From Escherichia phage anhysbys, in sequence record NC_052656.1: a stretch of 64,000 nucleotides of DNA. One strand, 5' to 3'. Position 1 is the stretch's first letter. Each line of letters opens with the position of its first letter. The translations under genes and the position numbers were made by a program. The notes below the pieces were generated by a model. It made no database searches. It saw nothing but the letters and a program-made list of their open reading frames with translations, and was not told where the DNA came from. Positions 21,971 to 22,460 of this stretch are shown piece after piece.

Positions 21971-22014
21971 TCTAGCCTCCTAAACGCGTCTCTGACGCAC
22001 TTTTTATATATAAG

Positions 22015-22043
22015 ATGATAAATCACCTTACCTAGTAAGTAAA
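22015..22043 (-). promoter_or_regulatory. candidate promoter (TTTACT-17-TATCAT) for minus-strand module
   Basis: reverse complement of 22038-22043 and 22015-22020; followed by GCGTC-AGA-GACGC hairpin (21985-21997). Confidence 0.4.
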
Positions 22044-22202
22044 CTTGCTCTACGAGCCTCTTATGAAGCTTGTGTTATAGGCTATACTATTGCTACCTGT
22101 TTAAGCAAGGTTTTTGCGCACAGAAAATAATTTTTAATAAAACTCTTGACTTTTGTGTTCGAAGTATGCTACCCTAGAAATCTATTAACGAGCGCAGCGA
22201 GT

Positions 22203-22226
22203 TAAGGTTTTAAGGTTTTAAGGTTG
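22203..22226. repeat. tandem repeat (TAAGGTTT)x3
   Basis: three consecutive 8-bp units at 22203-22226. Confidence 0.7.
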
Positions 22227-22233
22227 TTGATGT

Positions 22234-22266
22234 AGTACTCTGTACTCAAGTACTGTACTCCGTACT
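22234..22266. repeat. five GTACT iterons (two as AGTACT, two as TGTACTC)
   Basis: GTACT at 22235, 22242, 22250, 22255, 22262; the 10-mer GTACTGTACT recurs inverted at 22421-22430. Confidence 0.7.
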
Positions 22267-22269
22267 AGA

Positions 22270-22414
22270 TTAATAATTATTAAATATTAATAATAAATAA
22301 TTATTAGATCTAACAAACAGGTATAGTGTATCAGAACTGGTACGTACAGATCAACTTCTATCAATTAAAAATAAAATAATAAATTATTATAAATAATACT
22401 TGATCTATAGATCA
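22270..22414. repeat. AT-rich palindromic tract
   Basis: TAATAATTATTA (22271-22282) and TGATCTATAGATCA (22401-22414) are perfect palindromes within >85 % AT DNA. Confidence 0.6.
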
Positions 22415-22428
22415 GTATGAAGTACAGT
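22400..22428 (+). promoter_or_regulatory. candidate promoter (TTGATC-17-TACAGT) for plus-strand small genes
   Basis: hexamers with 17-nt spacing about 35 nt upstream of the GGAGG RBS of the 22461 ORF. Confidence 0.35.
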
Positions 22429-22460
22429 ACGGAACATCTTAACAAGAATGGAGGTGTGCA

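Follow-up and report, generated by a model that had tools for sequence, protein, structure and literature searches.

Does the 490-bp gap in which the genes of Escherichia phage anhysbys (sequence record NC_052656.1) turn from one strand to the other contain an origin of replication, or is it a promoter region? We analyzed a window of 64,000 nucleotides of this genome for sequence features, conservation, genome-wide statistics and skew behaviour. The gap (21971-22460) lies between the start codon of a minus-strand open reading frame (ORF) of 107 amino acids at 21970 and the ATG of a plus-strand ORF of 61 amino acids at 22461. A sequence-only reading of the window had described it as a divergent control region in which iterons flank an A/T-rich unwinding element, and had proposed it as an origin. 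The features listed in that reading were all present within 1 nt of where it had placed them. As to the origin architecture, the A/T-rich unwinding element and the divergent control region held up, whereas the iterons and the support expected from GC skew did not. We conclude, with a probability of about 0.7, that the gap is a compound region of divergent promoters and leaders with lineage-specific repeat expansions, an ordinary kind of element in a known genus.

The phage belongs to Phapecoctavirus (phAPEC8-like; Stephanstirmvirinae), a genus of myoviruses with genomes of ~150 kb. Over 3 kb around the gap it shares 99.2% identity with Escherichia phage vB_EcoM-Ro121lw (MH160766); of the 243 phage records that matched these 3 kb, 200 reached an identity of at least 95%. 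The full Ro121lw genome served as a stand-in for whole-genome analyses, and positions marked MH160766 refer to its record. Ro121lw has four gene blocks: A on the plus strand, from 130.5 kb through the record ends to 18.7 kb; B on the minus strand (18.7-54.8 kb); C on the plus strand (55.3-95.3 kb); and D on the minus strand (95.4-130.4 kb), where the DNA polymerase, primase-helicase and helicase are encoded. The gap is the divergent B/C junction (IG1). The other divergent junction, D/A (IG2), measures 117 bp and lies at 130.4 kb of MH160766. Phages of the phAPEC8/phi92 type are widely used in phage-therapy cocktails; no experimental origin or promoter mapping for them was found in the searchable literature.

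Conserved predicted promoters face both ways

Close relatives were compared in an alignment of eleven genomes that are 93-99% identical. The distant relatives were phages phiWec188, phiWec179 and phiWec190, PsgM04F, phi92 and FKP3 (Justusliebigvirus), Citrobacter phage Tr1 and seven metagenomic lineages. Judged by these alignments, the parts of the gap that are conserved across genera are a predicted leftward promoter (PL), a predicted rightward promoter with a sequence box behind it (P1 and box), and an A/T-rich stretch with a second predicted rightward promoter (P2). Conserved promoter-like sites in both directions, between oppositely oriented genes, bear out the earlier description of a divergent control region.

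PL (22043-22015, minus strand; TTTACT-N17-TATCAT) was recognized by consensus scan and conservation, and its core, GGTGATTTATCATC / AGGTAAGGTGATT, is kept in phiWec188, phi92 and Tr1. P1 (22146-22175, plus strand) consists of TTGACT (22146-22151), an 18-nt spacer and TACCCT (22170-22175), with an extended -10 TG at 22167-22168. A run of 19 pure A/T nucleotides (22124-22142, plus strand), resembling an UP element, ends 3 nt before its -35 hexamer. The -35, the TGnTACCCTA element and their spacing are invariant in six lineages, and P1 elements with a correctly placed -35 were present in 25 of 29 metagenomic hits. P2 (22400-22428, plus strand; TTGATC-N17-TACAGT) overlaps the palindrome TGATCTATAGATCA and an inverted GTAC dyad at 22421-22430. 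An equivalent, TTGAC(T/C)-N17/18-TA(G/C/T)A(G/C)T, occupies the same place in phiWec188, phi92, FKP3, Tr1 and seven metagenomic loci.

The box, CGAGCGCAGCGAG (22189-22201, plus strand; 22185-22205 with its TTAAC/GTTAA flanks), lies about 15 nt downstream of P1 and is predicted to form a small hairpin at about +10 to +30 of the P1 transcript. Its sequence, CGAGCG(C/A/AT)AGCGAG, is invariant, and the stem pairs around it differ by lineage, being TTAAC/GTTAA here and CC/GG plus GAA/TTC in others. The stem covaries modestly: 83% of the alignment cells are paired, compared with 74% in shuffles (none of 500 as high) and 31-44% in slid controls. Nearest-neighbour energies of the hairpin are weak, and its predicted stability is low.

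Between P1 and P2, the relatives have the blocks TTAGATCTAACA(G/A)ACA, GTATCAGATCTAACATAC and TTAATTAAC in common, and most carry AGATCTAACA twice. The corresponding central segment here (22307-22362, 56 bp, no strand assigned) contains the cross-genus blocks TTAGATCTAACAAACA, GTATCAGA and CAACTTCTATCAATTAA, with two GATC and two GTAC sites. When the P1-P2 interval of nine diverse relatives was folded with RNAalifold, just the 5' box hairpin and a 5-bp stem were obtained, with a covariation term of +0.52, which is no support. Since no covariation-supported fold was found in 22307-22362, the conserved blocks may be DNA-level sites. The single-sequence fold of the interval has a z of -2.55 and includes a long-range GTAC-GTAC pairing that phage BI-EHEC keeps by matching changes, possibly by chance (about 1 in 4). 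A search of Rfam with the gap and the two paralogous loci described below returned tRNA and noise only. Note that some of the cross-genus conserved blocks of the gap contain GATC. A GATC cluster was considered as a Dam/SeqA-type origin mark and rejected: four GATC in 120 bp are equalled at several sites of the genome, and GATC is at expectation genome-wide.

The short repeats vary among close relatives

We next consider the repeats that had been taken for iterons. Three perfect tandem copies of TTAAGGTT occupy 22202-22225 (no strand assigned), at spacings of 8 and 8. The triple repeat had been placed at 22203-22226; it is there, but in that register (TAAGGTTT) the third unit reads TAAGGTTG. 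Five GTACT units follow at 22235-22266 (no strand assigned), as had been described, with starts at 22235, 22242, 22250, 22255 and 22262 and spacings of 7, 8, 5 and 7. Their inverted recurrence was likewise found, GTACTGTACT (22250) returning as AGTACAGTAC at 22421-22430. With units of 8 bp (three copies) and 5 bp (five copies), both arrays are out of helical phase, unlike iterons of 17-22 bp.

Among the relatives aligned, three copies of TTAAGGTT were seen only in this genome, as a private expansion, and the others have ~1.6-2 copies. Most close relatives read TTAAGGTTTTAGGTT at this place, BI-EHEC has two units, Ro121lw has a different duplication, and further forms include TTAAGGTTTTAAGGTT; the copy number is thus polymorphic among genomes that are more than 95% identical. 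The GTACT array has a 13-nt deletion in phage dw-ec, and in KKP3954 (OR067838) and BI-EHEC nearly every GTAC of the gap carries a transition (GTAC to ATAC or GTAT). The TTAAGGTT array, the GTACT array and the neighbouring A/T tract 1 (22269-22306) are absent from all distant relatives compared. In the cross-genus alignment, the GTACT array and A/T tract 1 form an insertion limited to the main Phapecoctavirus clade. On this comparison, the three elements appear best explained as lineage-specific products of slippage or insertion, with no demonstrable essential role. Non-conservation of the repeats had been named beforehand as one part of what would speak against an origin, and it is what the relatives compared display.

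In an iteron origin, an initiator protein would bind TTAAGGTT and/or the GTACT repeats and melt the adjacent A/T tract. Direct repeats do adjoin A/T-rich DNA here, as in lambda ori, oriR of bacteriophage P1 and plasmid Rep systems, and the clustering of GTAC is highly non-random. However, the repeats fail as iterons on unit length (5-8 bp rather than 17-22 bp), on irregular spacing (5-8 nt), on loss in natural isolates and on absence from sister lineages; copy number varies among near-identical genomes, and the units are largely mutated in BI-EHEC and KKP3954. Known iteron origins also have an adjacent initiator gene and DnaA boxes. The eight flanking ORFs matched no Pfam family, or solely PHROGs of unknown function, so that no initiator gene was recognizable nearby. 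A scan of the gap for DnaA, IHF and Fis sites gave chance-level results, with one DnaA-like match with one mismatch (1.5 expected), one IHF-like match (0.8 expected) and no Fis-like match. An iteron origin is largely refuted by the non-conservation of the repeats, as judged from the alignments, and we regard it as very improbable.

Far more iteron-like repeats lie elsewhere. The noncoding region MH160766 136.7-137.3 kb (575 bp), the second least stable of the genome, holds a direct repeat of 72 nt and, with a spacing of 29 bp, four Fur-box-like palindromes of 19-21 bp (AAATGAnAATnATTCTCATTT). Judged by the architecture that had suggested an origin in the gap, this region is the better and more iteron-like candidate. 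The AAATGAnAATnATTCTCATTT palindrome recurs in and near the terminal-repeat region, at 74-92 and 253-271 of MH160766 and at 55-71, 250-266, 1161-1177 and 1219-1235 of the stretch from phage BME3.

A GTAC cluster in a GTAC-avoiding genome

The gap contains nine GTAC in 200 bp, in a 64-kb window with 54 GTAC. The rate-based expectation is 0.17 (P about 3e-13), and none of 20,000 shuffles reached nine. GTAC is the most depleted palindromic 4-mer of the genome, with 150 observed compared with 451 (Markov) or 530 (composition) expected, a ratio of 0.33. The ratio is 0.15 in BI-EHEC and 0.75, a mild depletion, in Justusliebigvirus-type loci. Despite the depletion, which holds for the main Phapecoctavirus clade, this gap carries 9-10 GTAC per 200 bp.

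To follow the fate of these sites, OL505078 32800-82799 (BI-EHEC) was compared with window positions 1-50000 (48 kb aligned, 98.6% identity). BI-EHEC lacks 18 of 35 GTAC sites: seven of the nine in the cluster and 11 of 26 elsewhere. Sixteen of the 18 changes are GTAC to ATAC or GTAT. Since the loss is genome-wide and no rarer inside the cluster than outside it, the cluster is not protected by selection. Mutation of seven of nine sites in BI-EHEC likewise argues that the motif is dispensable. The changes reflect either ongoing restriction avoidance or a systematic base-calling error at modified GTAC. The phage gene annotated as DNA methyltransferase (MH160766 100539-101333) had no Pfam match, so that no GTAC or GATC specificity can be derived from it. 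As a side observation, the runner-up GTAC cluster of Ro121lw (six in 200 bp; MH160766 34856-35055) lies inside a dTDP-glucose 4,6-dehydratase gene; such GTAC density in a bacterial-type rhamnose-pathway gene is consistent with a recent acquisition that still holds its GTAC sites.

The A/T tracts adjoin predicted promoters

The A/T-rich tract described earlier resolves into two runs of pure A/T within a span (22267-22400) that is 82.8% A/T. A/T tract 1 (22269-22306, 38 nt, no strand assigned) is clade-specific; no other A/T run of the genome is as long, and no other 40-bp segment as unstable. A/T tract 2 (22363-22398, 36 nt, plus strand) is UP-element-like and ends 1 nt before the P2 -35 hexamer. 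The two are the longest A/T runs and the least stable 40-60-bp segments in 150 kb, being about 5 standard deviations less stable than the genome average. Among 150-bp windows, that at 22263 has the lowest stability of the genome, by more than 1 standard deviation beyond the next. Tract 1 is 72% identical to tract 2 together with its GATC flank (direct repeat D1), and by this likeness looks like a partial duplication of tract 2. The perfect palindromes that had been noted, TTAATAATTATTAA at 22270-22283 and TGATCTATAGATCA at 22401-22414, were found as well. They are two of the seven perfect palindromes of at least 14 nt in 64 kb, and by our estimate a palindrome of 12-14 nt within a pure A/T run is fairly often expected by chance.

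A third case bears on the meaning of the tracts. The third-longest A/T run of the genome (30595-30625, 31 nt, pure A/T), in the structural gene block, ends 3 nt before TTGACA-N17-TAGACT (to 30657). Because an A/T run adjoins the -35 at P1, at P2 and at 30595-30657, we read the tracts as promoter-upstream DNA. An A/T-rich stretch precedes P2 in all lineages compared, the counterpart of tract 2 measuring 8-28 nt in most; in E. coli, Klebsiella and Citrobacter phage lineages the run before P2 has 23-47 nt. Many relatives that share the P1-P2 layout have A/T runs of 8-12 nt at most, within an interval of 65-69% A/T. Thus, the extreme length is a trait of the lineage and not a conserved requirement. 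The feature annotated as repeat_region in the records of phages nepoznato and tuntematon was set aside; it covers no more than 55 bp of A/T tract 2, with no functional note.

A further leftward promoter candidate, TTGATC-N18-TACACT (22347-22352 and 22323-22328, minus strand), would have A/T tract 2 upstream of it. The tract is bracketed by a 7-bp inverted repeat, AGATCAA and TTGATCT. This candidate belongs to the clade studied here; a good -10 is also present in phiWec188, and not every lineage has it.

GC skew follows the coding strand

Cumulative GC skew had been proposed as a means of checking the origin. It proved uninformative: the minimum of the window at ~22 kb is one of four turns in the genome, all at orientation switches. 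In the whole-genome curve, minima lie at 55.0 kb (the IG1 region) and 130.34 kb, and maxima at 18.66 and 95.45 kb; the blocks have skews of +0.10 to +0.19, -0.16, +0.07 and -0.15. In the record as deposited, the lowest cumulative skew is at IG2, not at the gap studied. Because every turn coincides with an orientation switch, skew follows the coding strand and cannot locate an origin in these genomes. For rV5, a related phage type, those who described the genome came to the same view of skew (PMC3606486).

An origin of another type, activated by transcription and coexisting with promoter function, would need no iterons. The P1 transcript would enter A/T-rich DNA 85-215 nt downstream, where an R-loop or duplex opening would allow a gp4-type primase-helicase and DNA polymerase to load. 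Large virulent phages that lack an initiator protein, such as T7 and T4, have origins made of a promoter with an A/T-rich unwinding element behind it. The primary origin of T7 consists of the promoters phi1.1A and phi1.1B and an A/T-rich segment, and T4 oriF and oriG of a middle promoter and a downstream unwinding element. The gap resembles these origins in that the predicted conserved promoter P1 lies upstream of the least stable DNA of the genome, in a phage with a T7-like replisome (including a primase-helicase with Toprim and DnaB_C domains) and with no dedicated initiator protein annotated anywhere in the Ro121lw genome. The A/T-rich DNA (66-75%) that follows all three P1-type modules described below fits as well, and GCG(N)AGC, a sequence within the box, can fold on a displaced strand into a DNA mini-hairpin of unusual stability.

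On the other side, nothing positive for initiation was found. Unlike in T7 and T4, the extreme tracts are not conserved, being absent in many relatives with the same P1-P2 layout, and the host rather than a phage polymerase would serve. Tract 2 is equally well read as the upstream DNA of P2, skew adds no independent evidence, R-loops form poorly from rU:dA-rich hybrids, and the gap is about 40 kb from the replication genes. We therefore hold a T7/T4-type origin to be unlikely, given the lack of initiation evidence, the non-conservation of the tracts and a promoter-upstream role that explains them.

A predicted promoter-box module in three copies

P1 and its box recur elsewhere in the genome, which the earlier reading had not foreseen. 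Ro121lw carries the module three times, each copy comprising TTGACTTTT..., TATG(C/G)TACCCTAA, a short variable hairpin and CGAGCG(N)AGCGAGT, with a spacer of N17-18 from TTGACT to TG. The first copy (M1; P1 and box, 22146-22205, plus strand) heads the tRNA genes and the structural block. M2 (MH160766 128616-128694, 128.69 kb, minus strand) lies 1.7 kb into block D and has a 130-nt structured leader before the next gene. M3 (MH160766 about 15330-15400, 15.40 kb, minus strand) is antisense within block A. It sits in a gap at MH160766 about 15240-15599 (290-360 bp, including phiWec188, where it spans 276-561 of the stretch compared) that has no annotated minus-strand gene and is surrounded by early genes of opposite orientation. 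Downstream of M3, a stem reads GTTTCAT...ATGAAAC in Ro121lw and ATTGC...GCAAT in phiWec188, changed on both sides; such double changes suggest a small or antisense RNA gene.

Sequence similar to M2 was found in 132 phage records, all Stephanstirmvirinae, at two places per record in Phapecoctavirus and at one in Justusliebigvirus; Justusliebigvirus-type genomes have at least M1 and M2. A pattern scan of IMG/VR with 19 specified bases returned about 40 loci, most without a -35 and from unrelated sequence families. As 20-30 chance matches were estimated for this pattern, only matches to TTGAC-N17-TGnTACCCTA were kept. No description of the module was found in the searchable literature, and no copy has an Rfam family. 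From its sequence and distribution, the module appears to be a phage-specific class of promoter that carries a conserved, early-transcribed element. The DNA after each of the three copies is above average in A/T (66-75%). An enrichment of k-mers after the modules (TAGAT, GATCTA and others) was discarded, because the background is mostly coding and the k-mers contain stop codons.

The box could stabilize the leader, serve as a site for a regulator or for antitermination, or, in an origin, form a hairpin during strand displacement. For the last of these roles, the module would be the start signal of transcription-primed replication, the gap one of several T4/T7-style origins, and the box hairpin a help in loading the primase-helicase; we consider this combination distinctly unlikely.

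The antitermination role would liken the box to boxB of lambda nutL and nutR and to HK022 putL and putR, in that a hairpin loads a factor on RNA polymerase, or alters it, for read-through of terminators over blocks of 35-40 kb. As in those systems, a small conserved hairpin, predicted here, would come soon after a promoter that heads a long operon: an invariant box of 13-14 nt, on a covarying stem, lies at about +10 to +30 relative to a promoter of its own. Each genome has two to three copies, with M1 at the head of the tRNA and structural block and M2 1.7 kb into the block of replication genes. Unlike nut and put, the box has a different sequence, no conserved boxA and no cognate N-like or Q-like protein identified, and M3 points antisense into early genes. 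The covariation is modest, the thermodynamic predictions are weak and Rfam gave no match. This reading refines the divergent promoter region and does not exclude it; we treat it as a tentative option on the doubtful side.

A working model for the gap

In the divergent promoter region that we favor, promoter activity and start sites are predicted. Host sigma-70 RNA polymerase would start leftward at PL into the nucleotide-metabolism gene block, and rightward at the tandem P1 and P2 into small genes, the tRNA cluster and the 40-kb structural block. The box would most likely be a leader element or regulator site that works within or upon the nascent RNA, or upon the polymerase as it initiates. 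From their position and recurrence, the A/T tract beside P2 and the shorter one beside P1 would serve as UP-element-like or bent upstream DNA. The layout has the makings of T4 and T5 early promoters and of rrnB P1 (a TTGAC-type -35, a 17-18-nt spacer, a TAnnnT -10 and A/T-rich upstream DNA), here arranged back to back. It differs from these sigma-70/UP promoters in the length of the A/T tracts (36-38 nt), in an unusual and strictly conserved P1 -10 (TACCCT) followed by a conserved box, and in that its activity is predicted.

Several points weigh against this interpretation. Consensus promoter matches in the gap are at shuffle level (8 compared with 6.3 expected), so that the case for promoters rests on conservation. 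The searchable literature yielded neither a mapped transcription start nor a measured promoter activity for this subfamily. A/T runs of 36-38 nt far exceed the canonical UP element (about 20 bp) and are more meltable than a promoter needs. Finally, a plain promoter model leaves the GTAC cluster in a GTAC-avoiding genome unaccounted for.

The question is nevertheless narrowed. Skew cannot place the origin, the short repeats are dispensable, and the conserved elements open to testing are PL, P1, P2 and the repeated promoter-box module. Should the module turn out to signal an origin or to serve in antitermination, a large group of virulent phages would have a cis element that is new; if neither, the region is simply a strong and elaborate early or middle promoter region. 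The three-copy module and the GTAC cluster in a GTAC-avoiding genome are of specialist interest.

Surroundings of the gap

The leftward leader contains the stem-loop GCGTC-aga-GACGC (21986-21998, minus strand), in the 5' leader of the 107-amino-acid gene and just upstream of its GGAGG ribosome-binding site (21976-21980). It is the dyad that had been noted near the minus-strand leader, GCGTCTCTGACGC, and phiWec188 retains it with one change (GCGTCTCTAACGC). On the plus strand the stem-loop is terminator-like, yet plus-strand transcription would not be expected to stop at this place. Some lineages have one more small leftward gene between the leftward leader and P1 (71 amino acids in phiWec188-type phages, at 1573-1785 of one of their stretches; 47 in FKP3, within 1300-1440 of its stretch), which marks the gap as a hot spot of gene gain and loss.

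On the plus side, the 61-amino-acid ORF (22461) is followed by ten tRNA genes at 23439-25361 (Met, Arg, Ser, Asn, Thr, Gly, Gln, Pro, Ile, Met) and by the terminase gene at 26858. The Ro121lw annotation adds a pseudo-tRNA-Tyr to the cluster. The proximity of the terminase gene raises a packaging start or genome terminus, in which the terminase would recognize the repeated short motifs and the bendable A/T DNA that lie 4.4 kb before its gene. The pac site of bacteriophage P1 is also built of clustered short motifs, and the record of phage nieznany opens inside the gap. We treated that opening as an assembly break. Other records open at arbitrary or terminase-based positions, and the motifs of the gap are not conserved. 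The Justusliebigvirus phage BME3 is reported to have a 342-bp direct terminal repeat (PMC12210895), also a feature in its record. The place of this repeat in MH160766 is from about 149.4 kb to 0.34 kb, and nothing in the window matches it. A terminus in the gap is hardly credible.

Two observations concern other promoter-like sites. Three more rightward ones lie between the small genes before the tRNA cluster (22643-22671, 22765-22794 and 23200-23229), and that at 22643 (TTGACT...TGCTAAACTAGAA) is similar to the -10 context of P1. A second promoter class comprises at least six near-consensus early promoters (TTGACA, N, TGnTAAGAT), each followed by the leader hairpin GTAGGGCGGC...GCCGCC; they are located on the plus strand of MH160766 at 138173, 139610, 140061, 143495, 144651 and 146254.

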